A DNA stretch of 64,000 nt from Amphiscolops sp. MND2022 (taxonomy: Eukaryota). Shown here piece by piece: positions 14,429 to 35,289 of the stretch; position 1 is the first letter of the stretch, and every line of letters begins with the position of its first letter. A program made the translations under genes and the position numbers. Below the pieces are notes generated by a model. That model had not been told where the DNA came from, did not search any database, and saw only the letters and a list, made by a program, of their open reading frames with translations. The stretch lies in assembly GCA_964187785.1 (NCBI GenBank), contig OZ076409.1, positions 37,636,001-37,700,000 of the forward strand, read 5' to 3'.

Positions 14429-15661
14429 CTAACCTTTTCAGATAAATTAAGTTCCATACATCTTGGCTGCAACAGCACTAAAAGCTGGTAATTTGAATTC
14501 TGCTGTTTGAGATCTTTTTGTAAATTCCGTTGTATGAATAGTCGCCCGAAATTAGATGTGTATTACATTGTGTCTGTTTAATTTGACTCTCAAGGCGCAT
14601 TACGATCGATGTATTGACTCGCTAATGAAAACTAGCTATTCAGTACCTCGCGTTTTAGATGTGCGGTCTTCGTTCATTCCACTTTTATAAAAAATCAAAA
14701 CTATGAAAAAGTGTCCCGAGGAATTTCTTTCATTGAAATTTCAGAAATCGATTTTTCAAATACAAAAATAATCCATTCGTTTTGAGTTGTCAATTTCGCT
14801 GTTTATTTCAATTACCGAGGAAACCTTTTTCGGCTGTGTAGCAATATAGTCGAGTTTAGCGACTATAGTCATCGCTTCCGCTTAGCGACGAGCTAACGCT
14901 ATTAGCGGGCCAATTCTTTGATTCCGTTCAATCATACTTAATTCTTGATTCTAGCAAAAAACAATACGTGCCGTTTTCACGGGTCACATAGAAGTTGCGT
15001 CCTGCTACGCGAACTGTTAGGTAAATTTGAATAATGACGTTGAAAATAACGCATGTTATTTCAGTCAAGACAATATTGAGTTGCCGCTTTGTCTTCAACT
15101 ATTCGACTGAGTTCGGTTTCTCTGTTATTAGTTAGGAAAAATCTCTTCATAGCTCTATTTCTCACGATGAAAGGAATTTTGAAACCAACATGGAATTTTT
15201 GGGCAATAAATTTATCAAATCTTGAAACTTGAAAGTCTTGCTTGAGTTTTTGATTAGTTGAAAAACAAATCGATTGATTAACAATTTTTTGCTAATCTAG
15301 GGATAAGTTCATTTTTCTCTGATTCGACTGACTGTTCTTTGGGTTAAAACTTCTGTGCTTAACTGATTGCTTCATTCCCAATTCTTCGTTCGGAAGAATA
15401 TCCAGGTGTAGATTTTTTTGAGGTTAAAATTGGAGAAGTAAGTAGTAGGGCAAAAACAGTAGAAACAAATCCTTTGTCATATCTTTCATAAGTGCTCTAG
15501 ATTGAATTCATACGCGATCAAAAGACATCGATATAACAGAATAGAGAACCACCACGAACAAACATTTTTGTTTTGCTCAGTTTGAAAGCTCGTATGGATA
15601 AGTCAGGGACTAATCTGAGCTCTCCGTGGTTATTCAGTAGCAATGAGGAATGTAAAAAGTT

Positions 15662-16396
15662 TGTAGCGATTACCTATCGAGTGCACGATTTCGAAAATTT
15701 CGATGAAAATTTCGTTCAAGGGACTACATCTCCTCTACTAAAGAGTCATATTCCGCTAGATGGCAGCGTGTCTTTATTCAAGTACCTGCCCACAGAATTG
15801 AAGAGAATTTGAACAAAAGACTCGAGAGAGACCCCAACCGAACGAGAAGACTGCAGAAATACAGGCCGCTGTCAGAAAAAGACTCAAATTTCTGTCAAAA
15901 CGGACTGAACTTTGTTCTAACAAGTGCTTTCTTCAGCGAAGCGTTACAAGACGCTGTGATTACCAAAAATGAGTCAACTAGCTTGACCAAGCATCCGTGC
16001 TTGTGTCCCCGGCTAATTGCTGCCTCAAAAGTGCTAATTATGTAGTAATTTTCGTATTTTCTTGTTGTAACAGCTCGTGAGCTACTCATTTCGATCTCCT
16101 GTGTAACTTCGAAAAAACTTGATTTTTCCTTTCCACCACTTGCATTTTTTTTAAAGGCTATCTAAGTGTTGGTTTCGAAGAAAAAGCGTAATGCGCACTA
16201 CTGATAGCAATTACAGACTGGATCAGGCCGGCGAGCACTTCACAAGAAGCGGAATCCTCCTCTGACGGGACAGTTTTTACCCGAAAGAGGCAAAATGAGC
16301 TCATGGTCATGGGCGCCTGTCCCGGGCAAATACCCATATCATGTGTTCCTCTAACTCTTATGGTTACGGCGACAATGGTGAGAGCTTGTCGTCACA
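15662..16396 (+). repeat. 5' LTR
   Basis: TGTAGCGA...TCGTCACA with imperfect terminal IR; identical to 34161-34895 except two 1-nt indels (acagg vs acacgg; T8 vs T7). Confidence 0.97.
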
Positions 16397-16412
16397 TAGA
16401 GACATCATTTTT

Positions 16413-16429
16413 TGGCGACCACAGAGGGA
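16413..16429 (+). promoter_or_regulatory. Primer binding site, probably tRNA-Arg type
   Basis: TGGCGACCACAGAGGGA is complementary to a tRNA 3' end ...TCCCTCTGTGGTCG-CCA, resembling animal tRNA-Arg(UCG) 3' ends. Confidence 0.8.
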
Positions 16430-19018
16430 TCGCTTCGAAGTGCTTCCCTTAATGGTTTTAAAATAGCCGACCCTCTGGTGATTGACGCCAAGTACGACCC
16501 GACTCTGATGGAAAGAAGAGAGAAGCAGAGTTTTTCCCACGTTTTTACCCTGTGTGTGTCATTGAAGATTTCAACCCCGGTGGATAAAGGTAAATCTTGT
16601 AAAAAAGCGTTGTATGTTGTGATTTTCATGCTTTTTTAGTAGTTGACAGGTAACGATTGAAACAGCCTACCCTCTTAACGGGTCACTCATAAAATTGGTC
16701 TAGCAAGCCGCTGGGAGGCTGCTAGAAGTGTTAACAGGTGTTTTCTAGCCTTTTTCAGCTTTTTATGACCAATGAAGTGAGTGTTGAGAAGAGGATGATC
16801 CTTGCTCAGAGGAATCTTACAATCTGCCGAAACGAGTTATACGACTCACCAATCCCATTTCCCGTACAGACAACCTAGGGAAATGAAATTTGGTGGAGAC
16901 GTACTACAAATGCTGACGTGTCTAATGGTGCAACCTGTTTGTCTCTGGCTGTTCTGGGTGATGAGCAAAAAGAACGAGAAGACACGACTCGTCAGTCCGG
17001 GTTGTATGATATTTTTGAGTCAGGTTAAAAAAATTTTTTGAGTCGCTCAAAATTTTGTGTACGACCATTTGCCAATGTTTTTACGAGCCTTCTGTAACTA
17101 AGTGTGTGCTTTTGCACCTGTTTTGTGCGAAAAAAGTGCGTTTCTTCATGTATTTTCGACGAAAAGTGCCAAATTTGGCCATTTTGAGGCGAAACACCTA
17201 CATGAGCGCGAGCGCTCTTGGTGCTAGCCACACACCTGCAGAAATTAAATAAAAGTAGCTCAGGACTCTAATGAGTTCGCAAAAAACGCGACGAAGTACT
17301 CAAAGTTGCCCGAAAAGGCACTTAGTATAAGTTTTGTGAGGAAAAAACCCCGTTTTTGAAAGATTGAACATTTTAGCACTTTGAACTTGTGGGGGAATTT
17401 GTATGGAAGCTTTTAAACATCCCCGTATGGTTGCAATTAGGTTGGGGTACACCTGCCGGTACCCAACAATACTCATTTTGGTAATTATAACCACTACTTC
17501 TTGAAAAAAGTTACGAGAACTGTGATTTTAAGGTTTTTCTATAGTACTCTTAGAAGAAACCCAACTTGACTATTGACGAACACTTCTACGCTTAGAATAG
17601 CCCCCGGGCTATAATTTTCAGTTTATTCAGTAAATTTAACGATCTATAGTGAAGACCGCATCCCAAAATTCCTTTTCAGTGCTGAGAAAAGTAGAAGAAT
17701 GCACTGAAAAACCTCCATTTTCCTAAAATCCGGACTGTCTCTGAGCTAAGGTCGGGTCATTGATTCTTGGACCTTAGCCAAAAGGTGGTTGCACTTTCAT
17801 AACCACCACTAAAAATAATGCTAGTGCCAAAAATTTGGTGGACGTAACTTTCACCGAAATCGAGAAAAGTTCTCTAACGTTTCCACTTTAGAGGACTGTA
17901 AAACTACCGAAATAATCCAAAACTGAAGGACTGTCGGTGCCTCATACTTAACGGGCACATCTAATCGAGGGTTTATCCTAGTGTTACGAGTAGTGGGGCA
18001 ACACCTAGATCCCATTTTTTCAGCCCTACCGCTTTTTGAGGTGACCCTCTTAGCCAATTTGTGAAAAAAGTAGTCCAAAATTGTTTTTCTTTAGGAGTGT
18101 TGTCCAAGTAAGGTCGAAACCTCAAATAAGCGTCCGCGCTTTCTTTTGATGGTTTCACCGGCATTGTACACTCTCATCGGCTGTAACCACAAAGTTTCAT
18201 GTCAATCCAACCGGTACTTGATGAGAAAATAGAGAAAACGTACCACTCAAAAAGTTGGGCATAGAGGGTAATTTTTCAAATTTTTCCCGAGTGATCCGAA
18301 TACCTCAATTGAAAAACGAGGTTGAATTGCAGTTCATTTCTACCATTTATACCAGATATTACGTTGTTTTGCGAATTTTGAGCCCGCTAGCTTTTTTTCA
18401 GTAGAGCACAATCTTGAAATAAGCAAGAAAATTGATGTATTTTGATGACTAAGGGTACCGAACGTCCGGATCAGCCTGAATCTTGAAATAAAAACCTTAG
18501 CTTGGATTTGATTTTGCCATTGTGTAGTACACCTACCACAAGGTCAGGTGGCCAATTTTCAAGTGTTTCCGACGATTAGACGTTGCGTTCGAGGCATCTT
18601 AGTCATTTATAAAGAAATTTAAAAAACTCAAAAATTGTCTAAAAACCCAATTGTTTGCGAATCAGCCATTCCGTAAGCCCCAAACGCACGGTTTCCGGCC
18701 CCACACCACGGTATCAACGCGCTGTGTAAGTTTCACGCCGGTGCGACCCCTAGATCGATTTTTGACTTTTTCGAGACGTGCGAAGTCATGAAAACCAACA
18801 GTTTGCGTAACCTTTGGATTTCTATAACGAGAACATTAGGCCGCGCGAACACCCAGCGACGCTCTAATCATTCAAAAGGGGGGAGGAAGGACACCTCGCG
18901 ATGAACTGAAGCATCAAAGACACCAGACCCAACGGGGTGCGAGACAAACCTCAGTGCAATATCAGACCTGACCTCAGACCCCAGGGAGGAAGATTGGCCA
19001 ACTGACGACAGTTTCGTT

Positions 19019-22000
19019 ATGGAACCCGATTTTTCAGACCCAATGTCAGACGACGCATCGGAGGAATATCAGGCTAAGCCGATCGCCAAGACTACCGATG
19101 ATATCGGAGGTTCAGCAGACGAGACAGGAAGTCAGGCGCACACGTCCAAATGGTTACAAGAACTCACCAAAGTAGCCGTCACACCTTTCGGTACTGACGA
19201 AGCAGGAACATGGCCCAACTCCAACAGGACAAACGCTGAGGAAGAAGCTGAAATGAGTTGCTTGAATGCCACTGGACAACTCAAAGCTCCCAGCATGGCC
19301 AGCGAGAGCACTGCAAACACGGCAGAGATATTACAACAAATGTCTTATGTTGGGGGTATGAACTATGCCAGGACACGTCTTCAAGAAGCTACGGCCCCCC
19401 GAGCATCTGGGAAAGGTAAGCAAGTACGGCCTCCAGCTCTACTGGCACAGACTGGTACTACCGGACCTCATGGCGACTCGCGCTCATCCTCACCCTCATC
19501 AAAAGCTGCATCTGCCCGATCTTCAGCATATCGAGCCGTACATGAAGCAGCGAAAGCGCGCAAAGCTCTGTTAGATGCCCAGATAGGCGTGAAGCAAGCT
19601 GCTTCACAACTGTCTGAGCGTAAAGCAAGGTGCGACAGAGAGCATCAGTCAATAATGGAGGAGATAGAAGCCGTACAAACTGAACTGCGAACATCGACTG
19701 AGCGACAAGCGCAAGGACATGAAATTCAGGCAGCCCGAATGGATGCCATGGGTTATCGAATGGCCGAAATAAAGGACATGGTGACCGAAAGAGAGGTACG
19801 CATGGAAGCTCAACTGCAAGAGGTATGTTCACAGATACAAGCAATGGGCACTATGTTGAAGAATATCCAACCTCAACCCGCACCAGTAAGCAACACCATC
19901 AAAGAGTTGCTGCAAGACACTGATATAGCACTGCCAAAACCCATGAAAAGCGTCTCCCTCAAGCCAAAAGAGAGTGTGACAATTTCGACGAACCCATCTG
20001 GCTCTAAACAACACTTGGCCAGGTACGCGCCCTTGCCACAAACTCTGGTCTCAAATGGAGAAGCTGCGTCAACATCGACGAAATTTATCCCATCCGCGGT
20101 ATCAACAAAAAATATTCCACCCACGACCAAAACTCACAAGAAAGAACCAACATGCGAGATGATAACTATCGACACTTCAAGCATGGGTATCAGCGACCTG
20201 CGAGAGCCCACACGCACAAACGTGCTAACCGAAGTCACCAGCACCTTCCAAACAGCAAATGCAACTTTGGGAGAATCAGCTGCAGAATTCCAAACCGCGA
20301 ACGACGAATTACCCCCGGGTAACCCATGCGCCAGCAGCACTCGACGCCGAGAAGTGACTCTCCCCGAGAACACCGATGACTCTGTCAACTCAACGCGAGG
20401 CAGCAGTATCCCGCCACCAGCTATCAGTGAAGAAGCGCCTATATCACCGGAGCAACTCAGGTTTACCGAGGCAATATCCAAAGCCATGTCCAAGGAACTA
20501 GCGCCGCTGATTGCTAATCGAGATCAAACTAGGGTGCGCCCTACGGTATACAAAGGCACAAAAGATGGTTCTGTCGATGGATGGCTCCCAGTGATGAAGC
20601 GATTTCTAGAAAGGGTACATGCAAAATCCCCAAAGATCGACAGAGCCTGGGCTATCATCGACCACCTGGAAGGAGAGGCGAGAAATTATATTATCAATAA
20701 ATCTGAACCTGAACGAGACGAGCCCGACAAGGTATTCTCTCTCTTGGCCAGCAGATTTGGAACCGGTGGAAATCGCATGCACGTGAGGCAAACCTTCATG
20801 TCTCGTGTCCAACAGGAAAAAGAGGATTGGATGCAATTCTTGGACGCATTAGAGGGTTTGCGCACCCAAGGTTTCCCAGACGAGCCTATCACTACGCGTC
20901 GTTATGAGATCCTGCAACGTTTTATAGATGGCATTAATGACCCGACGCTGCGACAAGAGTTGGCCGTGGTGTACGCCGCAGAGGCATATCTGACCGAACC
21001 ACCAACTGTAGAATCCCTAAGGTTCACCACGAGACAATTGCAACGGCATCGCCCAAACACATCAAAACCTTACGACCCAAGGTATGCAATGAGATCGAGG
21101 CCTCACCCTTTCGTGCCAGGAAAATTGGTTCATCCAGCACCAGGCATACCGCAAAACGTACTACCTCCTAACCAAGGACAACGAGAGGCTAAACCCCAAA
21201 TGGCTCCACCAGGCCCTGCATCGGTAAAACAGGCTCCTGCACAACAGCAACCAGCGAGAGTGATTCCCCAAGGAGCATGCTTCAACTGTGGACTACCAGG
21301 TCACTTTGCAAGGGAATGCCCAAGTCGAGACCTAGCAAGGAAACCAGCGGCTCGCGCTGCACCCGAAGAACGAGTAAACTTATGCGAGAATAATGTGGCC
21401 TCTGCATGTTCTGGCCCCGTATTCTGTGTAAATTGTGGCATGACTGAACACTCTGCATCTCAATGCCAAAATGTTCCGGTACATGAGGATTTGGCCTACA
21501 GCCTCTGGGCTGAACAGCCACCTGCTTCTCAAACAATGAGTGACAGCGAAATGGTACTCATGCTTCGCCCTGCTGAAGCCGCTCACGTGACGACGCCCCT
21601 TACCGTCACATGTGGCAAAATCCAAATCCAGACGAACCCGGAGCCAACTACTTTTGATCCCTCGGGACGCACTATTATGTCTGTCCGATTGCTATTGGCG
21701 ATTGAGAGAGAAACCCGCCCAGAACTCACCATAGACACCCTGATAGACGAGATAACCGCAAACGAAAATTGCCGACAATTGACCTTGCCCCAACCGGAAG
21801 AATGGCAGGTAAAAGGCGTCACTTCGACGTATCATGCCTATTCTCCGATTCCAGTCAAAGTTTGCATAGATGGTGTTGACATGCGTTTTAGTGCCACTAT
21901 CATTACTGACGCGTTTCCTCCTGGAATCTGCTTGGGACCGCAGGAGCTGCGCTGCTATAACATTGATGCTCAAGAACCAACTGGTGAAGCGAGAATCGAT

Positions 22001-25000
22001 GAGCGTGCGTCGCTCGTAGTTTCATTCGTGGTTCCCGATGCTGCTCCCGTGCCATTACGTGGTCTGATAGACACTGGATCAGGAGTGTCCATCCTCACCT
22101 TCTCAGCCTACAATCGAGTCGCTGTGCGCACTGGGACACTCTTACGACCTTATGGTATTGACCTATATGCCGCGATTGGGAAAACGATCAAGACTTTTGG
22201 TCTAGCGGAGAAAATCAAGTTCCAACTGGGAGGCTACGAATTGGAAACTAACTTCGTGGTAGTCGATGATGCCATGGGAGTGGAAGACTTCCTCCTGGGC
22301 AGAAACTTCCTACGAGCTTATCAAGTCTTGGTGGATTTAACCGCGATGAAGGTCATTGTCCGAGCTCCGTCTGAACCAGTGTGGTACCATGCCCACACAC
22401 AAGTAAGTAACGAATCACTCAATTCGTCGGTAGCGATTGCACAGGACGTAGTGTTGCAACCTTTTGAACGCGCAATACTACGCGCTAAATTGCTTGTAGA
22501 CAACTTAGAACCTTTCATGTTTCGAACCGTGCTAATCAATTTTCAAACACCTAACCGAATGTTAAAAAACGCCATCTTTTTAGAGGACACCGTGGCGACC
22601 GTGGGGGAGACTGGCTTCCTTTACGTCAGTTTAGGAAATCTTACCAGCAACGTGCAGCGGATTAAAAAGGGCACCCTTTTAGGAACCGCGGTACCCGTAA
22701 CAATGGTTCATAAAGCCATCCCCCAAATTGTCCCCGGACAATCAAGTGAAACTCAGCAGTCAAATGCAAATTATGTTTATAAAGTTTACGAACAGATGAA
22801 CCTTGATTCTTCTTCTGAATATAGTTCTTCATCTGAATTTGAGTTTTTGTCCTCTACCGAACCGTCAGAACTAGGCTTGTCCGAGCGCGAAGTAAAAAAA
22901 CGAACCGATCCGGCGTTAATGGCTCCGATACCGGGCCCGGAAGCACAACTCGACGAGGTGCGCGGTTTGTGGGGATCGACCGCCAGCGACACGCCTAGTA
23001 AACTTTTGAACGAATTTGATGATTTGTTTATGAAATTCAAAGCCGACATTGGCAAGTGTAAAATCGCTAAGCACCCGGTGGAAGTAGAGCCAGGGGCTGT
23101 ACCCCACCGCGAAGGTGCAAGACGAATGTCGCCTGACAAGGCAGAACGTGCTAACCAAGAAGTTCGTGACTTGCTAGCTTTGGGAATGATACAACCTTCC
23201 TTATCCCCTTGGGCGAGTGGAATTGTTATGGTCAAAAAGAAGAGTGGTGAATTGCGATTCTGTTGTGACTTTCGACCACTTAATGAAGTGACCATCAAAG
23301 ACGCTTATCCCTTGCCACGTATCGATGAAAGTCTATCCAGATTGGGCAAAGCCAAAATCTATACTAGTATTGACTTGGCATGGGCATTCTGGCAAATTCC
23401 TGTCCGAAAAGCCGATCGTCAAAAGACTGCCTTCGCTTGTGAACTTGGGTTATTTGAGTGGCGGCGTATGCCTTTTGGTATGTGTAACGCATCAGCGACA
23501 TTTCAACGGGCAATAGCGCGAGCGCTACAAAGAATAGTGAACCGTGAAGGAAGTATGGTTATGGCCTACATCGATGACATTGTGATTGCTACCGAGACCA
23601 TCGAGGATCACATGGATAGACTACGCGAAGTATTCCAATGCCTGCGTGAGGCCGGGTTCAAAATGAGAGTCTCCAAGTGTGACTTCATGAAATCAGAGAT
23701 CAAATATTTGGGCCGGGTAGTATCCGCAGATGGTATCAAGCCAGATCCAAAAGCTGTCATCAAGCTGAAAGAATGGGATATCCCGCGAACCAAGACTGAA
23801 TTGCAAAGTTTCTTGGGTTTTGCCAACTACTATCGAGATTTTATCCCGTGGCATGCAAAACTAGTTGCCCCTTTACACGCGATAACGGGAGGAGCCTCTT
23901 CATTTTTATGGGGGGAGGAGCAGCAGCGAGCCTTCAACAGCATCAAAGTGGCACTAATGGAAGCCACCGCTCTGGCGCAACCCGACACTGAAGGCGAATT
24001 TGTTCTCGACACAGATGCTAGTGGTGTAGCTATATCGGGTATTCTGCACCAATGGCAAGGACCACCTGAGAGTCGCAAACTGCGACCGATTGTATTCGGA
24101 AGCAAAAAATTAACTGCTACGCAAGCAAAGTACGGAGCCCCAAAATTGGAAATGTATGCTGCATACTATTTCATCTTGAAAAACCACAGTTATCTCTGTC
24201 CACGAAAGTTCACACTGAGGGTAGATAATCAGGCCCTATCCTGGCTAAAAACATATTCGATGGATCAGGCGATTATCGGTCGATGGATTATGGCTCTTGA
24301 AAAATATCACTTCAGCATTGAGCATCGACCCAGAACGCAACATCGAAATGCTGACGGTCTTAGCAAACGAACAAATGATTACAAAAAACACGAAAAGCAA
24401 CTAAAGGGTTTACCCGCAATTGCAGACAAATGGGATTTCCTATCACAGGAAGAATATAACAAACTCCCGCTAGCCCCATGGTTCGATATCCACGGACGTG
24501 TGATACCAAATCACCCAGAATTGCCTGCACACTTGCAGAGGTTGGGTAGCCAAAGTTCACCCGAGACCACAGTTGCCGTTCCCACGCGAAGGAGCGGACG
24601 AAGCAAACGAAATGCGACCATACGCGACGAAGCCATGAGAGCGCCCCTACCTACATTGCCAAAACCAGAATTGACGCTGCCTGCCGAACTTTATCCAGAA
24701 TATCCTGAGGATTGGTTGGAACTGACCGAGGATTATCAACGAGACTATTTACTCCCCACGCATGCTGCTAACGTACCATCAAGAACCACTTACCCATTGA
24801 CGGAAAAGCAAGCAACTAGCACTGCACCAGAGCACGTAAAACAAGCCGCGTTCGTGGTAAACAGCATATCAATGGAACTGCATGAACATGCTAACACAGT
24901 CCATGGGTTGAAGGATCTACTACTAGCACAAAACCGTGACGTCCATATATTGGCTATCAAGAAATTGGTAATGCAAGAATCAATAGATAATGACGTCTTT

Positions 25001-28000
25001 CCGGAGAATGTACGTGCCTTTGCCAAAAACTACCACAAACAGAAGAAGAACCTTCTACTAATAAACGCCAACAGGATTTTGTGTGTAAAATACTCCAAAA
25101 GTCAAAGAGCTTTGCATGAACGCCCCTGCATGATTGTGATGCCCCAATTGTATCAGCATGAGATACTATTCAAGGCCCACGACGCGATGGGACATCAGGG
25201 CATCGCGAAAGTCTTGGCCAGAATTCAAGAGCGCCACACTTGGCCAGGCATCCGCCGCACCATTGGACAATACGTCAGCCAATGTATCACTTGTCAACAA
25301 GTACGCGACAAGCCTGGTGATGTACGCTTTCACTTGAAAAATATCCAAAGCGGTTATTTCAACGAGCTAGTCCAATATGACCACATGAAAATTTGTCCCT
25401 CTGATGATGGTAACACAGGGATATTGGTTATTATCGATCATTTCTCTGAGCTCGCAGAAGCTGTGCCGTGTAACCACGATGAGTATGATGCAGCGACCAC
25501 TTCAAAGTTGTTGTTGCAGAAGTGGTTTGCCCGCCATGGAACGCCAACGAGGATGCAGTCAGACAATGCTCCCAATTTCACCGCGGCAGTATCTGCTGAG
25601 TTTATGAAAGCAGCCCAAGTGACCAAAGTAACCTCAACTGCTGGCCACCCCAGGACTCAAGGGTTGGTAGAGCGACAAAACCGAACGCTACTCACCCTAC
25701 TGCGTGTATTCTGCTCTAGACGAATGCGTGACTGGGATCAGTACCTAGATGAAGTTATGGGTGCATACAACTCCACACGTCATGCCACTACTGGATTCTC
25801 CCCGTACATGCTGACCAGAGGCATGGAAAAAGCTATACCCCTGACTTTCTTGTATCCAGAATTTGCAACTCAGTCATTCGAATCACACGAAGCCTATGTG
25901 GAACATGTGCTGGCTCGACAACAAGAGATTCATGACTTAGTCCGTCGCAACACGCATCAAGCCCAGCAACGACAAAAATTGAAATACGACAGAGCAATTC
26001 GTGCTAAAGCCTACGAAGTGGGCGAACCTGTTTGGGTATTCTGCCGATACATTCCTCAAAAGGGATCCCCTAAATTGATGAGAGCGTGGCGTGGTCCTCA
26101 CAAGGTAGCACGAGTGCTACAAGAGGGACGTGTCTACATACTTGACACTGGTCAGAAAGTGCATTTCGAACGATTGAAACCGCATCATGGTGGTCCAACA
26201 GAATGGGCAGCTGTTCCTGCGCATAACGGCGAGGTTGCTATTATCATGGACCCTGATCCAGAACAATCCCATGAGGAGGTGAGAGACGACGCTTCGCAAC
26301 CTTCTTACCGTGCAGAGGAACCAATTTCAGAAGCCAGCAATGCCTCTTTGCCTTCTCGACAAAGACATTGGATGGACACACGGTTACGCACACACATGCG
26401 CGCAGGTGGCAGCCGCCTGCATTATCAACAATTTGGCTACTCTTCGACAGAGTCTGACGATGAACGTTCTGATGTACTCCTATCGAGTGTTCAGGCTAGT
26501 CCTGACGAAAGTGTTATCTTGTCATCACAAGTAGATGAGCCTGCGCCTATTCCCGAAATGCCAATATCACCACTACCTGCTATGGAGGCTCTATTTTCAG
26601 AGAATGAAGCAGTACCCGACGCATTAGACATAGCCCCGAATCCTAATATCCACGTACCCACCGAAAGTGCCGCCACCTCCTTGACCGGTACATCCGCCCC
26701 ATTATTGACAAATCCATCTCTTACGGATATGTTGAGTAACTTTCCCATTTGGCCCCTAATCGATGACAATGTTCTCAACCCAACCCTAGACGACAACGGT
26801 GCTGACACACCAACGACCAATAACGAAAAGGGATCAATTCCCCCTGCAACAGTTCCCACCAACAACGATGCAGCTACTACCACGAAACTCCCCAATGCTC
26901 CTAGAGGGCGTGGACCCCGAGGACGTCCGCCAGGCAGAACAAGGCCGCGAGCCTCGCTGCCACGTGGTCACCAACGGAGAGGTGCTATTAGAGGCGCTCG
27001 CAAAAGAGGCCGTCCCAGAGGTAGACCTCCTCGTATAACGCACGCCAGACCTAACACTCCTACCCGTGTTCGTAACACTCCATCAATGGACACTGACTCT
27101 TCTGCCCCTAGCGCGGCGGTTACCTCAGATCAGGCAGCACCGCCAGAATCGACCAACGCTCGTTACGGACTGCGACGCAATCGTTTTCCCAGATATCGTT
27201 GCGGAACATGTGGCCTAAGAAACTGCGAATGTAACTACATGGTCCACGCGGGCTTCCCAATCAAATCCCAGGGAGTCCTGCTAGCACGTGAACAGGAGAA
27301 ATCACTTCCGAGCGGAATGGTTGACCGTTTGGTTATTCGAGCCGAGAAAACTTATACTGGGCTACAACGCAGCGACGCTCCATATCCCGTGGACTATATC
27401 CTATCCAAAATGAAAGATTCTACGATAGCGAAGGCTCCGTGCCCAAGGTTCAAGGAGTGGACCTATGATCTTGTTGGTTTGGAGTTCATCTTACCCATCA
27501 CTGTTCCCCCTTTGCCTACAAATATTGCTTTTGGTCCTTTCAACTATGAGCGAGAGCCTATCCAAATGATACGCTGTATTCCTGCTGACCTCTTGTATGA
27601 CAAATACAACGTCACCGCAAAACCAGGAGACGTCTATCAGCCTACAAGCAACTGGTGGCTACTAGTTACGGCCAAACAAGCATCCGACCTGGTTCATCCC
27701 ACTAACTTGAACACCTGTCTGGAGAGTTTGCGGACGATGGCCTCTCCTGATAGAATCACTTGTTTCCACACCATAGACCTATATCGTGGTAAAATTAAGT
27801 TTGAATGGTGGCTGGAACTTATTATAGCAGTTTTATCGAATTTTTCACGAATCAGATTCCTGGACGAATGGACACACTCATTTCCTAGTCCTGTATCGCT
27901 CCAATCGGCCCTGCACGCACTGGATACATGGTCCAGGGCTAATATTGATAATCAATCACTGCCGCGATCTGTGTGGCAAGATTTGGGCGCAATCAAAGGC

Positions 28001-28555
28001 CTCCTCCCGAATGCATGTGACGATGCTCTCTCCAAAGACCTCGGACAAGAGTTAGTGTACCATGGAGCCGTGAGACCTCAATTGGTTGACTATGTGCAGT
28101 ATGCCAATACGGACTTCCTGCAGACTCCCCATCATATCGTTTTATGTTGTCCCGCAAATCTGGAAACTAGTTCTGCCGCTCTTCGTTACGTCATTCGTGA
28201 GCATGGTGCAGATGCAATCTTTCAACTTCGACCGGAGGTTGGCAATATTGTAACGCTACCCACATCTTTGATAGACGGCCATCCTCAGACTATCCACCTT
28301 CTAATCACACGAGCTACACCTCGCTGCCCTATGCTCGCTGATATTCTCTTTGGATGTCTTGATCATTTGAAAACGTTACTCGAGCGCTTGGAGGCGATAG
28401 AAGTACACTTTGCCATCATTGATCCTGAACGCCCAATACGTAATCTTTTTGATTTTTATACCTGTTTGATGGACGTATTCGCCGACACCCCCCTGACCGT
28501 CGTTCTTCACGATCGCGTTTACGTATCTATTGCAAGCGTCGCTAGCTTTCCATAA
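19019..28555 (+). CDS. gag-pol: Gag-Pol polyprotein, 3178 aa: coiled coil, capsid, 2x CCHC, pseudo-protease + protease, dUTPase-like, RT, RNase H, integrase, AT-hooks, 2x macrodomain-like
   Basis: CFNCGLPGHFAREC (21278-21319); CVNCGMTEHSASQC (21425-21466); LIDTGSG (~22064-22084); RMPFG and YIDD (23567-23578); TDAS...NADGLS; integrase H-H-C-C then D-D-E (QYDH, QSDNA, LVERQN) and WRGP. Confidence 0.98.
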   Translation: MEPDFSDPMSDDASEEYQAKPIAKTTDDIGGSADETGSQAHTSKWLQELTKVAVTPFGTDEAGTWPNSNRTNAEEEAEMSCLNATGQLKAPSMASESTANTAEILQQMSYVGGMNYARTRLQEATAPRASGKGKQVRPPALLAQTGTTGPHGDSRSSSPSSKAASARSSAYRAVHEAAKARKALLDAQIGVKQAASQLSERKARCDREHQSIMEEIEAVQTELRTSTERQAQGHEIQAARMDAMGYRMAEIKDMVTEREVRMEAQLQEVCSQIQAMGTMLKNIQPQPAPVSNTIKELLQDTDIALPKPMKSVSLKPKESVTISTNPSGSKQHLARYAPLPQTLVSNGEAASTSTKFIPSAVSTKNIPPTTKTHKKEPTCEMITIDTSSMGISDLREPTRTNVLTEVTSTFQTANATLGESAAEFQTANDELPPGNPCASSTRRREVTLPENTDDSVNSTRGSSIPPPAISEEAPISPEQLRFTEAISKAMSKELAPLIANRDQTRVRPTVYKGTKDGSVDGWLPVMKRFLERVHAKSPKIDRAWAIIDHLEGEARNYIINKSEPERDEPDKVFSLLASRFGTGGNRMHVRQTFMSRVQQEKEDWMQFLDALEGLRTQGFPDEPITTRRYEILQRFIDGINDPTLRQELAVVYAAEAYLTEPPTVESLRFTTRQLQRHRPNTSKPYDPRYAMRSRPHPFVPGKLVHPAPGIPQNVLPPNQGQREAKPQMAPPGPASVKQAPAQQQPARVIPQGACFNCGLPGHFARECPSRDLARKPAARAAPEERVNLCENNVASACSGPVFCVNCGMTEHSASQCQNVPVHEDLAYSLWAEQPPASQTMSDSEMVLMLRPAEAAHVTTPLTVTCGKIQIQTNPEPTTFDPSGRTIMSVRLLLAIERETRPELTIDTLIDEITANENCRQLTLPQPEEWQVKGVTSTYHAYSPIPVKVCIDGVDMRFSATIITDAFPPGICLGPQELRCYNIDAQEPTGEARIDERASLVVSFVVPDAAPVPLRGLIDTGSGVSILTFSAYNRVAVRTGTLLRPYGIDLYAAIGKTIKTFGLAEKIKFQLGGYELETNFVVVDDAMGVEDFLLGRNFLRAYQVLVDLTAMKVIVRAPSEPVWYHAHTQVSNESLNSSVAIAQDVVLQPFERAILRAKLLVDNLEPFMFRTVLINFQTPNRMLKNAIFLEDTVATVGETGFLYVSLGNLTSNVQRIKKGTLLGTAVPVTMVHKAIPQIVPGQSSETQQSNANYVYKVYEQMNLDSSSEYSSSSEFEFLSSTEPSELGLSEREVKKRTDPALMAPIPGPEAQLDEVRGLWGSTASDTPSKLLNEFDDLFMKFKADIGKCKIAKHPVEVEPGAVPHREGARRMSPDKAERANQEVRDLLALGMIQPSLSPWASGIVMVKKKSGELRFCCDFRPLNEVTIKDAYPLPRIDESLSRLGKAKIYTSIDLAWAFWQIPVRKADRQKTAFACELGLFEWRRMPFGMCNASATFQRAIARALQRIVNREGSMVMAYIDDIVIATETIEDHMDRLREVFQCLREAGFKMRVSKCDFMKSEIKYLGRVVSADGIKPDPKAVIKLKEWDIPRTKTELQSFLGFANYYRDFIPWHAKLVAPLHAITGGASSFLWGEEQQRAFNSIKVALMEATALAQPDTEGEFVLDTDASGVAISGILHQWQGPPESRKLRPIVFGSKKLTATQAKYGAPKLEMYAAYYFILKNHSYLCPRKFTLRVDNQALSWLKTYSMDQAIIGRWIMALEKYHFSIEHRPRTQHRNADGLSKRTNDYKKHEKQLKGLPAIADKWDFLSQEEYNKLPLAPWFDIHGRVIPNHPELPAHLQRLGSQSSPETTVAVPTRRSGRSKRNATIRDEAMRAPLPTLPKPELTLPAELYPEYPEDWLELTEDYQRDYLLPTHAANVPSRTTYPLTEKQATSTAPEHVKQAAFVVNSISMELHEHANTVHGLKDLLLAQNRDVHILAIKKLVMQESIDNDVFPENVRAFAKNYHKQKKNLLLINANRILCVKYSKSQRALHERPCMIVMPQLYQHEILFKAHDAMGHQGIAKVLARIQERHTWPGIRRTIGQYVSQCITCQQVRDKPGDVRFHLKNIQSGYFNELVQYDHMKICPSDDGNTGILVIIDHFSELAEAVPCNHDEYDAATTSKLLLQKWFARHGTPTRMQSDNAPNFTAAVSAEFMKAAQVTKVTSTAGHPRTQGLVERQNRTLLTLLRVFCSRRMRDWDQYLDEVMGAYNSTRHATTGFSPYMLTRGMEKAIPLTFLYPEFATQSFESHEAYVEHVLARQQEIHDLVRRNTHQAQQRQKLKYDRAIRAKAYEVGEPVWVFCRYIPQKGSPKLMRAWRGPHKVARVLQEGRVYILDTGQKVHFERLKPHHGGPTEWAAVPAHNGEVAIIMDPDPEQSHEEVRDDASQPSYRAEEPISEASNASLPSRQRHWMDTRLRTHMRAGGSRLHYQQFGYSSTESDDERSDVLLSSVQASPDESVILSSQVDEPAPIPEMPISPLPAMEALFSENEAVPDALDIAPNPNIHVPTESAATSLTGTSAPLLTNPSLTDMLSNFPIWPLIDDNVLNPTLDDNGADTPTTNNEKGSIPPATVPTNNDAATTTKLPNAPRGRGPRGRPPGRTRPRASLPRGHQRRGAIRGARKRGRPRGRPPRITHARPNTPTRVRNTPSMDTDSSAPSAAVTSDQAAPPESTNARYGLRRNRFPRYRCGTCGLRNCECNYMVHAGFPIKSQGVLLAREQEKSLPSGMVDRLVIRAEKTYTGLQRSDAPYPVDYILSKMKDSTIAKAPCPRFKEWTYDLVGLEFILPITVPPLPTNIAFGPFNYEREPIQMIRCIPADLLYDKYNVTAKPGDVYQPTSNWWLLVTAKQASDLVHPTNLNTCLESLRTMASPDRITCFHTIDLYRGKIKFEWWLELIIAVLSNFSRIRFLDEWTHSFPSPVSLQSALHALDTWSRANIDNQSLPRSVWQDLGAIKGLLPNACDDALSKDLGQELVYHGAVRPQLVDYVQYANTDFLQTPHHIVLCCPANLETSSAALRYVIREHGADAIFQLRPEVGNIVTLPTSLIDGHPQTIHLLITRATPRCPMLADILFGCLDHLKTLLERLEAIEVHFAIIDPERPIRNLFDFYTCLMDVFADTPLTVVLHDRVYVSIASVASFP
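27518..27870 (+). other. Macrodomain-like domain 1 (TARG1/OARD1 type, degenerate) within Gag-Pol
   Basis: MIRCIPAD / KPGDV / LLVTAKQAS...NLNTCLESLR / RIRFLD parallel the TARG1 segments LAHCISED / KSGEV / YLITKKRAS...NLQKSLEAMK / KITVY. Confidence 0.6.
28085..28512 (+). other. Macrodomain-like domain 2 (TARG1/OARD1 type, degenerate) at Gag-Pol C-terminus
   Basis: VQYANTDFL..HHIVLCCPANL...EVGNIVTL...IHLLITR...LFGCLDHLK...EVHFAII...LMDVFADTPLTVVLH follows the TARG1 pattern ITYVKGDLF..SLAHCISED...SGEVAVL...IYYLITK...LQKSLEAMK...DLSMPRI...IEEVFEATDIKITVY. Confidence 0.75.
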
Positions 28556-28779
28556 AGCTCTCGTTTTTCCGCTTTTTTTTTGTTTTTTGTTTTTTATCCG
28601 CTCGATTAAGTTTAGTGAGTCGACACGGAGTTTATTTGAGACTATTACATTACCTTTTTCTTTAATGTTAATGTGTGACATTCTATTACTTTCCCTGGTA
28701 TTACCCTTAAAATGACCTATGGTGTTGCCCTACTATCAAGTGTGCTACAATCGACCTGCACTCTTTCAGAATTGTCGTC

Positions 28780-31700
28780 ATGAACCAAGATAATGATAGA
28801 AGCAACAACGTCCCGCCAAGGTCTACAGATAACTCTCCTGCTTTGGGGCAACGCGTCTACGACACTGCGCGTGTCCAACGTACCCCACAAATTGCCTTTA
28901 TTCGAGACAGACTCGACCAAGGTCTGTCGCCAGCTACAGTTGCCGGGGTAGCAGCAATTATTGCCCAGATGGAATCACAATTGCAAGCCCCAATGCTGAC
29001 GATATCAATTACTTCAGGGTTTCCTGGATTCCAACGATCCATGACGTACCAAGATGGAGTGTGGCACGGCCATGATCTCACGCATCACTTCACGGATGAT
29101 CGTGCGGCGATCTCATATAGTCCTGCGAATGGCGGAGTCCATCAGACTAGACCTTTACAGATCCCTTCTTGCCCGCCTCCACCTCCACCGCCACCTCCTG
29201 CACCAACACCACAAGCAGTAGTGCGTGCGCGCACTCCTGCTCCTATAGTGCCTGGCCTGCCCAATCAATCTATGGCGGAGCAAGCAGTCATCTCAGCGCT
29301 GCAAGCAGTGGCTGCCAACCCCAATTACGATGATTTCATGCGATCCATGGAGCAGTGTTGGCCAGAACTACGTCGAATTGCTCTGCCCACTGTCACTATT
29401 CGCAACGACAATGTGACTTCAACTGAAACACGTCAAGGTGTCATCACTATCCCCCACATCAATCCTCAGTCTGAACAGCCAGGACACTCTCGCACCGTGA
29501 CTGTAGAGCGCAGTCGTTCGCCTTCCCGCTCTTCTCAAAAGGGGGGAGGAGAGAGCCGCCCTGCCTCAAGAAAACGCAACGACCCTTCTCCAACAAAAAA
29601 GACTCAACAACCACTGACTGCCCGTGACAGTCCCTCGAGCAAGCCACCACCCGACAAAAAGATCTCCAACGAGAAGGCCACAACCTCCAAAGCGCCAGAC
29701 CAAACAAAATCAAAAGTGTCGGAAGCATGCGTGCTTCCCTCACCCCAATCACAACCGGACGTAACAGGCGAACAACAAGGACTGCCGCAACCACCATCCA
29801 CGCAGTCTACAACACGCGAGTCGCTGGCTCAACGAGCGACTCCTAAGCCTTCCACATCAAGACAGCCACAAACGGAGAAAACTGTGGGTTATCAAGGCAC
29901 CCCTGAATCCCAGCGAACTGTCAAGGACATAATGGGTGACTACCCAGGATTGAAGGTAACCAACAGTGGTCCAACTGGAACCCCACTCCGCAAACAGTCG
30001 ATTCAACACCCAACTAAGAGGACCTTTACGAAACAGCCGACGTACCTGAGTCCCATGCAAAACACAAAGGGCACATTGGTCACCAAGGACTCCCGACGTA
30101 TCTGGGAATCGGCAGTTATAGTATCGCCCGAATGGCTATTTGAGAAGAACATGTGTCCTCCGAATGACGAAGAGCATGCGAAGTTGAAGAAGGCGAATGT
30201 ACCTGTATTCATGAATCGTCCAATCCGCCCCGACCACACCCCTACCAATGAGCCGCCATGGCTAGGGAAGGCAATGAATATGCTGCCAAACGTAGAAGAC
30301 AATTACCTAGACGCCCTCAACATTGACCTTCGTGGGCAATTCGCTGATCGATATTTCCTCAACGCTGGAGAGACCTTCGAGATCAACCCACGGTACGCCC
30401 GTGACCTCGAAGCCCAGCTACCAATGCCAAAAGAAAGGTTGCAGCGTGCGCGCTTCGCCTTACTTATAGACTCAACATTCCTCAAGAATGTCCCCATTGA
30501 CAACGTGCTGTCAGACGTGATGGTTTTTACTCTACCGCTGTCACGTATTCCCGAGATGGCCGAAGTGTTGGTCACCATGTTTGACCCTGAGATGACAGGA
30601 ACCTTCAAAGAGCCACCCCCACGCAGAGTGATCATCAGCAACGTTTTCGATCACATGGCCTGTGAAGGACTAATGGCCCAGATCGCGAACGTTGAGATTA
30701 TGAATCCAAGTCCAGCTCAGCGAACAACGGTACGCAATGCAGCATTGAACATGGCCCGAGCCATGGAAAAAGCCCAAAACATCTTGAAGGATAAACTCAA
30801 GGTGCCAGCCCTGTTCGTGACACCCCCAGGTTTTTGCCAATGGCCCCCCGCCTTGCAGAGATTTATCTACATGGTGACAGAAGTTTGCAAGTGTAGAGAA
30901 ATAGACTTTGCGATCTGCGCGCCCAATATGCGGATTAGCTCCAACGACTTTCGTCCCTCCTGGCTGTCCTACATGGGGTATATTGCCTCAGTGTCTAAAG
31001 TGCTACAGTCAGTGGAAAAGACAGGGAACGCGCAGCTGACAATCGACGATGCCATCTACTTTGATCACGGCACTCGCATGGGCTTGTTAGTATTCAACAA
31101 GGACGGAGAAAGGCGAGTCCCAGAGCCCAGTACGGCTGAATGCGAGGCAATCCGCCTGAATAACTGGATAGAGCGCGCGCGCTCCTCCGGTGGAAAGACT
31201 TGTATCAAAACCGATCTTGCAGAAGTCACTGCCACAATGAGCAAAGTCCCCAGCGACCGAGAAGTAGAACGATCCATCCCGCGAGTTCAATTTGCCAAGG
31301 ACCTCACAATCGATCAATTATCAGTGGGAATGAAGTACATTGCTGCAAAACTGACGAGCGAAACTCAGGCTGAAATCCAAGCCTTCAGCAGCACCTACGA
31401 CGCCTGGTACCAGCGGCTACAAACTACCACCGTAGCAGACATTGCAAAAGAGCTTGGGATGTCAACCGACCAGTTTGCCATTTGTTTGGGATTGGGTTGG
31501 AGTCCCGATGTTATTCGAGTCGAGTTCGATTTAGACGAGAGTTGGTTGATCGAAATCAGCGAGATTATCGGTACCATGCAGGTGAACGAACTCTTTGCAC
31601 TGATGCTCACTTTCGGGCAGAAACGCTTTGTAGCTGGCCCAATGATGATATTGACCGACCTGGTTACCGAGTGTAATCTGGAATGGCTATTTTCATACTT

Positions 31701-33147
31701 AGTGATTGCGCGAGGGAATATCTCAGGCCTCACCGCCTTAGCCAAGCTGTTACAACGGAAAGACGCTCAGGATTATCCCGCTCACCTGGAGCGTATGACA
31801 ACTTCATTATATCACTGGATATATTGCAGTCTGGTCTTTGCCTCGGGACTTTTCGTGGGAGTGGATAAGCACCAACCATTATATGACGGACGTCAGCTAG
31901 TGACCGAGGTAGCTGGATTTTTGACACCCAACCAGCTGGCAGATTTCACTTTGGCTGAAGTCGAAGATCTAGTACCGGTGTTAGCACCCGTGCTAACTCC
32001 GATATTTGGCCCAACCGGGATACTTCGCTATCCCACCAAGCCTCTGCGACTGGCCTCGGAGACACTGACAGTATCCATCCTGACTTATCTGAAGAACGTG
32101 AAACCGCACAACTATCAACAGATGCTTGAACGTGGGCTGTTTCTGCTAGTACCACGCATGTATACCACCATAAAGAATGAGACGCAGCAAGACGAAAACC
32201 TGGCCGGTATTCTCAAAGCCCGAACAAAGAAGGCGTGCCCTTTACCTCGCGAATACGGCCCGGTGAATTGGTACAATTCTCCCCTAGATCACCTCGGAAT
32301 CCCACAGCGATTCAATTGGAGTTTCGCACACCTCAGGAAGTACGTGACCGAATGTGTGCAAACCATGGGCGGTCACACGAATCAGGAGTACAATTTTCAA
32401 ATGATCAAGCTTCCAGCCAGGTACTGGCGAGGACCCATCGGTTATATCCGGGCTAAGCCAATCAGTATGGTCGAGAAGGGCTTTGATGAGCAGTATGCCT
32501 ATCGCGATCACTACAAACTAGGCGTGTGGATGTCAAGGACCCTGGAGGAGCGCCAAGGGCGCCTAAAAGGTTTGATCATCCCCCCACTGACAATGCCTGT
32601 TTGGAATCCAGAGGCGAGGGTTACCATGGGAAGCGACATGCCAGCGGAGACTTGCTACCACGTCATGGAATTGCTAAGTGATCCCCTCGGACCCGAATGG
32701 GAAGCCTCCAGGCAAATCATAGAACATGCAAACAGGGACAACTGGTCCAGAGCCTGCGGGCTCTGGGGCCGACCTGATCTACGCCCGAAACTCAGTGCGA
32801 AACAGAAACGACCCATTGCCACCCGCAATAGACCGCTGGATCTACCGCACTTGTTTAATGCCAGTAGATTGGATGTGCAGATCCCAATCTCCACGTCGAC
32901 CACAAGTCCTGCCAATGTTAGCGGCTCAGCCAATGCAGCGCAAGAACATTCGCCAGAAGCCTCAACTCCTGTAGCCGCAGAAAATGGCCCTGGTGGCTCA
33001 AACACGGCTCCCAGGACCCATGAAACTGCCAGCGCCGAACCAAATCCAGTCCTGCGAGGAGGAAATACGCGAAGAGGATCTCTGTCCGAACTGCAACCAA
33101 AGGCAGACGTTTCCCCCAGAGCGCGTCACTCCTCCGCCACCCAGTAA
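28780..33147 (+). CDS. ORF2, 1455 aa, unknown function; Pro/Ser-rich N-terminus, SGNH/GDSL-like domain (aa ~558-745), helical region
   Basis: Uninterrupted ORF between pol and the 3' LTR with element-like GC content; no signal peptide or obvious C-terminal TM anchor. Confidence 0.93.
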   Translation: MNQDNDRSNNVPPRSTDNSPALGQRVYDTARVQRTPQIAFIRDRLDQGLSPATVAGVAAIIAQMESQLQAPMLTISITSGFPGFQRSMTYQDGVWHGHDLTHHFTDDRAAISYSPANGGVHQTRPLQIPSCPPPPPPPPPAPTPQAVVRARTPAPIVPGLPNQSMAEQAVISALQAVAANPNYDDFMRSMEQCWPELRRIALPTVTIRNDNVTSTETRQGVITIPHINPQSEQPGHSRTVTVERSRSPSRSSQKGGGESRPASRKRNDPSPTKKTQQPLTARDSPSSKPPPDKKISNEKATTSKAPDQTKSKVSEACVLPSPQSQPDVTGEQQGLPQPPSTQSTTRESLAQRATPKPSTSRQPQTEKTVGYQGTPESQRTVKDIMGDYPGLKVTNSGPTGTPLRKQSIQHPTKRTFTKQPTYLSPMQNTKGTLVTKDSRRIWESAVIVSPEWLFEKNMCPPNDEEHAKLKKANVPVFMNRPIRPDHTPTNEPPWLGKAMNMLPNVEDNYLDALNIDLRGQFADRYFLNAGETFEINPRYARDLEAQLPMPKERLQRARFALLIDSTFLKNVPIDNVLSDVMVFTLPLSRIPEMAEVLVTMFDPEMTGTFKEPPPRRVIISNVFDHMACEGLMAQIANVEIMNPSPAQRTTVRNAALNMARAMEKAQNILKDKLKVPALFVTPPGFCQWPPALQRFIYMVTEVCKCREIDFAICAPNMRISSNDFRPSWLSYMGYIASVSKVLQSVEKTGNAQLTIDDAIYFDHGTRMGLLVFNKDGERRVPEPSTAECEAIRLNNWIERARSSGGKTCIKTDLAEVTATMSKVPSDREVERSIPRVQFAKDLTIDQLSVGMKYIAAKLTSETQAEIQAFSSTYDAWYQRLQTTTVADIAKELGMSTDQFAICLGLGWSPDVIRVEFDLDESWLIEISEIIGTMQVNELFALMLTFGQKRFVAGPMMILTDLVTECNLEWLFSYLVIARGNISGLTALAKLLQRKDAQDYPAHLERMTTSLYHWIYCSLVFASGLFVGVDKHQPLYDGRQLVTEVAGFLTPNQLADFTLAEVEDLVPVLAPVLTPIFGPTGILRYPTKPLRLASETLTVSILTYLKNVKPHNYQQMLERGLFLLVPRMYTTIKNETQQDENLAGILKARTKKACPLPREYGPVNWYNSPLDHLGIPQRFNWSFAHLRKYVTECVQTMGGHTNQEYNFQMIKLPARYWRGPIGYIRAKPISMVEKGFDEQYAYRDHYKLGVWMSRTLEERQGRLKGLIIPPLTMPVWNPEARVTMGSDMPAETCYHVMELLSDPLGPEWEASRQIIEHANRDNWSRACGLWGRPDLRPKLSAKQKRPIATRNRPLDLPHLFNASRLDVQIPISTSTTSPANVSGSANAAQEHSPEASTPVAAENGPGGSNTAPRTHETASAEPNPVLRGGNTRRGSLSELQPKADVSPRARHSSATQ

Positions 33148-34150: not shown

Positions 34151-34160
34151 GGGGAGTGTA
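34151..34160 (+). promoter_or_regulatory. Polypurine tract (short)
   Basis: GGGGAGTGTA immediately 5' of the 3' LTR. Confidence 0.65.
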
Positions 34161-34895
34161 TGTAGCGATTACCTATCGAGTGCACGATTTCGAAAATTTC
34201 GATGAAAATTTCGTTCAAGGGACTACATCTCCTCTACTAAAGAGTCATATTCCGCTAGATGGCAGCGTGTCTTTATTCAAGTACCTGCCCACAGAATTGA
34301 AGAGAATTTGAACAAAAGACTCGAGAGAGACCCCAACCGAACGAGAAGACTGCAGAAATACACGGCCGCTGTCAGAAAAAGACTCAAATTTCTGTCAAAA
34401 CGGACTGAACTTTGTTCTAACAAGTGCTTTCTTCAGCGAAGCGTTACAAGACGCTGTGATTACCAAAAATGAGTCAACTAGCTTGACCAAGCATCCGTGC
34501 TTGTGTCCCCGGCTAATTGCTGCCTCAAAAGTGCTAATTATGTAGTAATTTTCGTATTTTCTTGTTGTAACAGCTCGTGAGCTACTCATTTCGATCTCCT
34601 GTGTAACTTCGAAAAAACTTGATTTTTCCTTTCCACCACTTGCATTTTTTTAAAGGCTATCTAAGTGTTGGTTTCGAAGAAAAAGCGTAATGCGCACTAC
34701 TGATAGCAATTACAGACTGGATCAGGCCGGCGAGCACTTCACAAGAAGCGGAATCCTCCTCTGACGGGACAGTTTTTACCCGAAAGAGGCAAAATGAGCT
34801 CATGGTCATGGGCGCCTGTCCCGGGCAAATACCCATATCATGTGTTCCTCTAACTCTTATGGTTACGGCGACAATGGTGAGAGCTTGTCGTCACA
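34161..34895 (+). repeat. 3' LTR
   Basis: Direct repeat of 15662-16396, followed by GTT. Confidence 0.97.
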
Positions 34896-35289
34896 GTTGG
34901 TCTCCTGTATGACAACTCTGAGTTTCGATATAATTCAACTAATTATCAGCATATGCTTTTTTCCTAACTAATAACAGAGAAACCGAACTCAGTCGAATAG
35001 TTGAAGACAAAGCGGCAACTCAATTGCCAGGATCGTGAAAGGTCTTCAAATTTCTCAAGGCTTTCGCAAAGAATACAATTTCTTCCAGAACCTTGAAACA
35101 AGTTTGAAAAATCTTTGATTGTAATGAGCAACAAAGAGCATTTTTTGAAAAATCATATCAGGAAAACTTTTTATTGAGGATCGTTCTAGCATTGTATTTC
35201 ATTTCAAGACGCTCAAGACTGTACTTCGTTAAATTGTTTTTGAGGAAGTGCATGAAATGACGCTGCAAGATTATTGAACAGAGAATCTA

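Follow-up and report, generated by a model that had tools for sequence, protein, structure and literature searches.

A Putative Tandem Pair of Pocket-Closed TARG1-Type Macrodomains behind the Integrase of a Gypsy-Type Retroelement Family in Amphiscolops sp.

Introduction

Among the macrodomains, the class that includes human TARG1 (OARD1/C6orf130; PDB 4J5R, 2LGR), DarG and ALC1-like proteins is the one of most relevance to the present work. Catalysis by TARG1 involves Lys84 and Asp125 (PMC9411070), and the substitutions G43E, I44E, and G123E each abolish its ADP-ribose binding and activity (PMC5928194). According to the same source, TARG1 binds RNA through basic patches, the G123E protein still binds RNA and poly(ADP-ribose) (PAR) competes poorly with RNA upon it, and the binding of PAR requires an intact pocket in addition to the basic patches. 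SCO6735, a member of the same class, is without the counterparts of Lys84 and Asp125 and yet is active; it retains the glycine of the phosphate loop, and the change G128E lowers its activity (PMC9411070). In retroelements with long terminal repeats (LTRs), a macro-domain has been reported for fish epsilon-like endogenous retroviruses, where it occurs as additional open reading frames (ORFs) (Basta 2009, cited in PMC4977317). Most LTR elements are described as duplicating 4–6 bp of their target, whereas Troyka elements duplicate 3 bp (PMC12440569). In this work we have analyzed a stretch of 64,000 nucleotides from Amphiscolops sp. MND2022 (assembly GCA_964187785.1, contig OZ076409.1, positions 37,636,001 to 37,700,000 of the forward strand; referred to below as the window), which contains a 19.2-kb Gypsy-type LTR element (15662-34895) carrying a Gag-Pol gene and a second ORF, and in which Gag-Pol ends in two macrodomain-like units.

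Fold of the Two C-Terminal Units

The segment 27518-28552 is in frame with Gag-Pol and lies at the end of ORF1 (18905..28555, + strand, 3216 aa stop to stop). Unit 1 (27518..27874, aa ~2872-2990), in which the first loop is shortened, is followed by a conserved linker of two helices (27875..28042) and by unit 2 (28043..28552, aa 3047-3216), all of them on the + strand. In the initial annotation of this region, made from the sequence alone, the end coordinate of 28512 falls short of the last strand of unit 2. Among 1.84 billion representatives, a search yielded 300 relatives at E values up to 0.001, and a search for longer proteins identified 43 relatives, seven of which carry integrase domains by Pfam.

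When family profiles covering unit 2 were compared with the PDB, human TARG1 was the first match (E 0.009, 0.02, and 0.0034), the part of unit 2 concerned being aa 3047-3207 at 28043-28525. An AlphaFold2 model of aa 2805-3216 was constructed from 60 sequences (pLDDT 86, pTM 0.60), with the low-complexity linker lying outside the modelled segment. In this model, unit 2 matched TARG1 (2LGR) with a Z score of 16.5 (root-mean-square deviation 4.1, 142 residues aligned), DarG with 15.1 (2.8, 139 residues), Bt_1257 with 13.6 and Poa1p with 12.4 (2.7, 138 residues), and the other macrodomain classes reached 10.9 or less. We have also made use of a bridging profile of 22 TARG1-like domains from other retroelements, one of which matches TARG1 at E 1e-27; in a profile-profile comparison unit 2 matched it at 97.5%. 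The modelled structure shows unit 2 to be of the TARG1-type macrodomain fold. Other comparisons gave little: in the ESM Atlas a cluster that is 14% Macro gave unit 2 a score of 0.89, which we treat only as a lead, the macro region by itself matched no Pfam family, no Macro match was found in 150 members (25 families shown), and a single-sequence PDB search of the region gave one chance match only. The distant relative P0189 taken alone matched Pfam Macro at E 0.3.

For unit 1, profile hidden Markov models gave no match in the PDB, no Pfam match was found and the ESM Atlas returned only low-score hypothetical clusters. In the profile-profile comparison, however, it matched the bridging profile at 93.5% (score 46.7) and the unit 2 profile at 89%, whereas control profiles (reversed, reverse transcriptase, integrase, and RNase H) remained under 1%. 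In the comparisons as a whole, 40 block shuffles gave maximum scores of 23 and 29 as against observed scores of 47 and 74, the 23 and the 47 being those of unit 1. The strand-helix order of a macrodomain was seen for unit 1 in two predicted models. A structure search with the full model gave weak rows only for unit 1, namely macro-like domains of aminopeptidases (Z 6.4-6.5, model positions 68-183), and rows for the tandem macrodomains of PARP14 and of the coronavirus SUD region span model positions 67-403, which cover unit 1. On the basis of these profiles and models, unit 1 is very likely a TARG1-type macrodomain fold. The proposal in the initial annotation of two TARG1/DarG-type folds is thus borne out, for unit 2 by structure and for unit 1 by its profile match and the topology of the model.

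Residues of the Pocket and Net Charge

The residues at sites equivalent to those of TARG1, as judged by sequence alignment, were counted in 156 non-redundant rows out of 198, using only the rows that cover each site. The position of the catalytic Lys84 is occupied by Ala2923 in unit 1 and Arg3136 in unit 2; Lys is found here in 0/66 relatives of unit 1 (Ala in 46 and Ser in 16) and in 1/59 relatives of unit 2 (Arg in 55), as compared with 19/22 of the retroelement TARG1-like domains. The loop G121-C-G123-L-D125 has become D-L-Y-R-G (2958-2962) in unit 1 and D-P-E-R-P (3173-3177) in unit 2, so that both units share a D-x-x-R sequence in place of GCGLD, with the loop Asp present in 59/65 and 41/44 relatives, respectively. 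Asp125 is kept in only 1/64 relatives of unit 1 and 0/45 of unit 2. At the site of Gly123, a glycine in 19/22 of the retroelement TARG1-like domains, unit 1 has Tyr2960 (Tyr 50, Phe 7, and Gly 1 of 64) and unit 2 has Glu3175 (Glu 35 and Gly 2 of 44). Gly43 corresponds to Ala3091 in unit 2, where 59/63 relatives have Ala and none has Gly; the same region is shortened in unit 1. The motifs LVTA, DLYRG, SSAAL, LITR, and DPERP pointed out in the initial annotation are all present in the window units, and its statement that the catalytic Lys and the glycine loops are lost is confirmed by these counts. In strand 2, 47/67 relatives of unit 1 and 51/68 of unit 2 retain the C-x-x-D motif.

The two units also differ from the retroelement TARG1-like domains in their charge. 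The median net charge is -2 for unit 1 (35 rows) and -2 for unit 2 (23 rows), as against +8 for the 22 TARG1-like domains, and in the window copy it is -1 and -8, respectively. Because acidic or bulky residues would close the diphosphate site, both pockets are predicted to be plugged, and neither unit is expected to bind or remove ADP-ribose.

Selection on the Integrase Tail

The integrase (25142..26176, + strand; Pfam Integrase_H2C2 and rve) comprises an H2C2 zinc domain, the catalytic core and a C-terminal region up to an HFERL motif, and it is 82-90% identical among the sister families. It is followed by a tail linker (26177..27193, +) that consists of ~90 conserved residues and then a low-complexity stretch. 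This linker measures 320-397 aa, and unit 1 starts ~450 aa past the C-terminal motif of the integrase. Within the linker are R/P/K-G-R-P motifs (26903..27034, +) that we take to be AT-hook-like; they are present in 20/20 of the frames listed and absent from one older copy. Pfam AT_hook matched weakly in 4/150 members (best E 0.26) and gave no match in the window segment itself. A CxxCx4CxC four-cysteine motif (27194..27235, +), found in 19/20 frames, is likely to bind zinc. Between this motif and unit 1 lies D0 (27317..27517, +), a conserved block of ~70 aa that is not macro-like; a third macrodomain at this position was considered and ruled out by its match of 0.1% to the TARG1-like profile.

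The ratio of non-synonymous to synonymous change (dN/dS) for unit 1 was 0.03-0.05 in 3/3 measurable pairs of sister families (L093, L097, and L099). For unit 2 it was 0.05 in the one measurable sister-family pair, two further pairs being saturated with dN of about 0.08. These values are similar to those of the reverse transcriptase (RT) among sister families (0.02-0.05), and those of the tail linker were 0.04-0.11 in its first part and 0.13-0.25 in the rest. Among 30 young copies, 38/45 and 39/51 variants were synonymous, a count biased by the picking of these copies by protein score. Purifying selection on the two units is strong, and it keeps the block formed by the zinc motif, D0, unit 1 and unit 2 entire; the suggestion that this region is constrained among relatives has therefore held up.

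Distribution of TARG1-Like Domains in Gypsy-Type Elements

Single TARG1-like macrodomains are found in many other Gypsy-type families of this genome (L049-L068), for which a first look gave 1442 candidates. These domains are basic and mostly retain the Lys and GCGLD, and they occupy three positions in Pol, viz. the C-terminus, the interval that separates RNase H from integrase (L061 and the database protein P0196) and a site before RT, between it and the protease (L062, L063, L064, and the database protein P0197). The C-terminal domain characterizes an RT clade of 15 elements, at 240-310 aa past the integrase in the 13 that were measured, and no AT-hook-like motif was found in the linkers of elements with a single C-terminal domain. 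The genome's retroelements have captured ADP-ribose erasers of the TARG1 type several times.

The tandem module, in contrast, has an identical layout throughout an RT clade of 19 elements (support 99/99), which is separate from the 15-element single-domain clade (100/100, with long branches flagged). The elements in this RT tree were chosen by the presence of the module, and the tree is composed of unnamed elements only. In an unrooted tree of the domains themselves, units 1 and 2 lie together on one side of a branch with support of 100 that divides them from the intact domains. Within the C-terminal clade, L050, L054, and L066 have independently lost the Lys, and a Glu replaces the loop glycine at or next to the position of Gly123, the register being in doubt by one residue because of a gap; this would be a second degeneration of a C-terminal TARG1-like domain. 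The distant relatives P0087 and P0189 match the genome at only 34-35%, and therefore the tandem module probably exists in other species as well. P0189 seems to hold a middle place between unit 2 and the intact domains.

The Host Element and Its Target-Site Duplication

The element is bounded by a 5′ LTR (15662..16396, +; 735 bp, TG...CA ends) and a 3′ LTR (34161..34895, +), the latter preceded by a purine-rich tract, and it is flanked by a 3-bp target-site duplication, GTT (15659..15661, with its partner at 34896-34898). As the two LTRs differ by 0 substitutions and two single-base indels, the insertion must be very young. Gag-Pol shows the order zf-CCHC knuckles, protease, RT, RNase H, integrase, and a long C-terminal tail by Pfam; the commonest frame length among the siblings is 3292 aa, and the window copy of ORF1 falls 76 codons short of this at its 5′ end. 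ORF2 (28711..33147, +; 1478 aa) has a core of ~750 aa conserved in the sister families at 27-46% identity, and it accompanies the macro module in those sister families that were examined. Searches of Pfam and of the PDB by profile gave no family and no convincing match for ORF2, and a likeness to SGNH esterases, seen by eye, received no backing from either.

The family is recently active, with hundreds of near-identical copies and ~270 young insertions in the 1.07-Gb genome. No RNA entry was listed for the region, a negative that carries no information about expression. A first look with the macro region gave 4301 candidates, sister families among them, and all 117 candidates that were scored are 97-100% identical to it. 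The exact 20-base start of the LTR occurs 554 times, and among the 100 places listed these starts are mostly paired ~18.5 kb apart; hence the burst of insertion seems very recent and solo LTRs scarce.

An exact 3-bp duplication with TG..CA ends was found for 12/13 LTR pairs of the family, the other being a tandem arrangement, and in a distant subclade for 3/3 resolved elements (LTR pairs and relatives L133-L162, L170-L173, and L181); its length could not be resolved in 5/8 elements of the tandem clade and in all six comparison elements. No empty, pre-insertion site was found in our searches. The TG..CA ends of the LTRs, the order protease-RT-RNase H-integrase and the CX2CX4HX4C knuckle place the element in Ty3/Gypsy, but its duplication differs from the 4-6 bp usual for that group, a length that is typical and not strictly defining.

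Some other features of the window were also noted. A leader of 2.5 kb (16397-18904) separates the 5′ LTR from ORF1, and the primer-site-like sequence TGGCGACCAC begins 16 bases past the LTR end instead of adjoining it, the family having two spacer variants. A perfect 67-bp inverted repeat surrounds the element (15075-15141 and 34958-35024), as if it had inserted into a small element with terminal inverted repeats; a search of the genome gave no second copy of the upstream flank. Farther downstream are about three units of 2.15 kb, repeated in tandem with 98-100% identity (42612-48552), and dispersed short repeats common to 37851-38135 and 52269-52729, 14.6 kb apart, which are probably fragments of another mobile element.

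Function of the Macrodomain Pair

The chances are about even, in our view, that the pair consists of two conserved TARG1-type folds that have lost catalysis, whose pockets are predicted to be plugged and which act as a protein-docking module on the integrase tail. An ancestor of this Gypsy-type lineage, in which the pair stands behind the integrase after a linker with AT-hook-like and four-cysteine motifs, would have taken up a single TARG1-like domain, in the way of other Gypsy lineages, and then duplicated it; such a duplication is suggested because both units share the D-x-x-R loop. With the diphosphate sites shut and the block from the zinc motif to unit 2 maintained by selection, the basic AT-hook and the zinc motif, which are better candidates for contact with DNA than the macro pair, would touch DNA, and the neutral-to-acidic pair would dock a protein. 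This protein may come from the host, as a factor of chromatin or of the nucleus, or be one of the element's own, and its docking could help the integration complex to reach its target or to assemble upon it. A broader form of this proposal is rather unlikely: that in a clade of giant Gypsy-type elements a captured eraser has been converted into a duplicated, pocket-closed docking module which, in combination with the AT-hook and the zinc motif, makes up an integrase tether of a new kind and is also the cause of 3-bp duplications from TG..CA ends.

Several observations weigh against the docking proposal. The fold of unit 1 is less firmly supported than that of unit 2, and dS is saturated in all unit-1 and unit-2 pairs that involve the window copy, so that the ratios come from sister families only. 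Basic domains do occur among the relatives, with values as high as +7 for unit 1 and +5 for unit 2, and a net charge is not equivalent to a surface map. The highly conserved loop Asp and Arg, Lys2963 and Arg3136 could, from their conservation, mark a new ligand site, and by analogy the precedent of SCO6735 calls for caution in inferring inactivity from the loss of Lys84 and Asp125. With regard to targeting, the GC content of the flanks of seven insertions stayed at 0.33-0.35 over their whole length, with no rise in AT close to the site, and a preference for AT-rich targets, which we had considered, gave no signal in these seven elements.

The initial annotation had envisaged non-catalytic binders of ADP-ribose/PAR or of nucleic acids. 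That the units read ADP-ribose or PAR, and so anchor integration at PARylated chromatin or protect the integration complex, would be in keeping with the TARG1-type fold, with the C-x-x-D of strand 2 kept in both units and with the Arg that unit 2 has at the site of Lys84, which could still hold phosphate; catalytically dead macrodomains are, moreover, reported to be common in PARP14/15 and coronaviruses (PMC10221186). Nevertheless, neither glycine loop survives, Gly123 having given way to Glu or Tyr and Gly43 to Ala, and the basic charge that accompanies the intact pocket in the binding of PAR by TARG1 (PMC5928194) is gone, and these residues lead us to regard this reading as decidedly unlikely. 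It is also very improbable that unit 2 is still a hydrolase working by a non-canonical mechanism. The activity of SCO6735, the match at Z 13.6 to Bt_1257, a close structural relative, and the conservation of pocket-side residues speak for such a mechanism, but SCO6735 keeps precisely the phosphate-loop glycine at which its G128E change is harmful, and unit 2 has Glu there in 35/44 relatives. Binding of RNA or DNA (element RNA, cDNA or G-quadruplexes) through patches outside the pocket, as in SUD and TARG1, has in its favor the reported binding of G-quadruplexes by SUD through lysines (PMC2674928), the RNA binding retained by TARG1-G123E (PMC5928194) and a conserved cluster of Arg and Lys at 2961, 2963, 3094, 3098, 3109, 3136, and 3176. 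The neutral to acidic net charge of the units, in place of the strongly basic one of the retroelement TARG1-like set, weakens this idea, and we consider it unlikely.

The initial annotation also likened the pair to the chromodomains of chromoviruses. Its position at the Pol C-terminus agrees with this; the distance of unit 1 from the integrase and the occurrence of intact macrodomains at three Pol positions do not, and because of the latter, position alone implies no targeting. A search of Gag-Pol for chromo domains in Pfam gave no match at E up to 1, and the modelled part of the tail is macro-like. The mobility of intact macrodomains among Pol positions, due to which they need not act on the integrase, lends some credit to a tail that the element's protease releases and that functions separately from the integrase, e.g., as a particle or cytoplasmic factor together with ORF2 or against host silencing. 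The long, partly low-complexity linker and the company of ORF2 in the sister families would suit a released tail. In contrast, the AT-hook-like and four-cysteine motifs and the 90 constrained residues suit a continuous extension of the integrase, and no cleavage site was identified; a cleaved tail is, in our estimate, quite unlikely.

Novelty and Comparison with Known Systems

In the literature that was searched (a scope that did not extend to Repbase, subscription journals, and supplements), no description was found of a tandem pocket-closed macrodomain pair or of a clade with TG..CA ends and 3-bp duplications. Both of these are new here. The intact and closed domains of one host constitute a matched natural pair for testing the role of ADP-ribosylation against retrotransposons, and the closed pair also bears on the function of macrodomains once the binding of ADP-ribose is gone. 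If pocket closure did take place independently in a second lineage of this genome, the conversion of an enzyme into a scaffold would be a recurring strategy of retroelements. Annotation rules built around 4-6 bp would overlook duplications of 3 bp with standard LTR ends, which are also relevant to the evolution of integrase geometry.

Although the window element resembles Troyka in the length of its target duplication, Troyka is described as having CG..CG ends, a CX2CX8-10HX4C knuckle and LTRs of 100-400 bp (PMC12440569), whereas the window element has TG..CA ends, a CX2CX4HX4C knuckle, a 735-bp LTR, a 17.8-kb interior and a second ORF. Membership in Troyka is ruled out by the termini, the knuckle and the LTR length. 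With the fish epsilon-like endogenous retroviruses the element shares the capture of a macrodomain by an LTR retroelement. Chromoviruses similarly carry, at the C-terminus of Pol, a fold of the reader type that was captured, the integrase chromodomain (PMC12440569, PMC5053271), but this fold is a different one, and the window pair lies ~450 aa from the integrase.

The coronavirus SUD (Mac2 and Mac3) provides another parallel, as it consists of tandem macrodomains of a viral polyprotein without glycine loops or ADP-ribose binding, according to the available accounts (PMC2674928, PMC10221186). It differs from the window pair in its macrodomain class and origin, and the structural match has a Z score of 6.6-6.9 only; SUD also follows an active Mac1 and uses its lysines to bind G-quadruplexes, whereas no intact macrodomain was detected in the window element. 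The macro pair is likely a docking scaffold that is SUD-like in design, by analogy only. There is also a likeness to the intact TARG1-like domains of other Gypsy elements (L049-L068 of this genome and the database proteins P0196 and P0197), which are of the same class, reside in Pol and in one clade are also C-terminal; they differ in being single and basic, in mostly keeping the Lys and GCGLD, in belonging to a separate RT clade and in occupying other Pol positions as well. As compared with TARG1, DarG and the ALC1-like class, the likeness consists of the fold of unit 2, the C-x-x-D of strand 2 and the L-x-T motifs, whereas Lys84 (Lys80 in DarG), Asp125, Gly43, and Gly123 are replaced and the domain is present in two copies, is not basic and is fused to a retroelement Pol.

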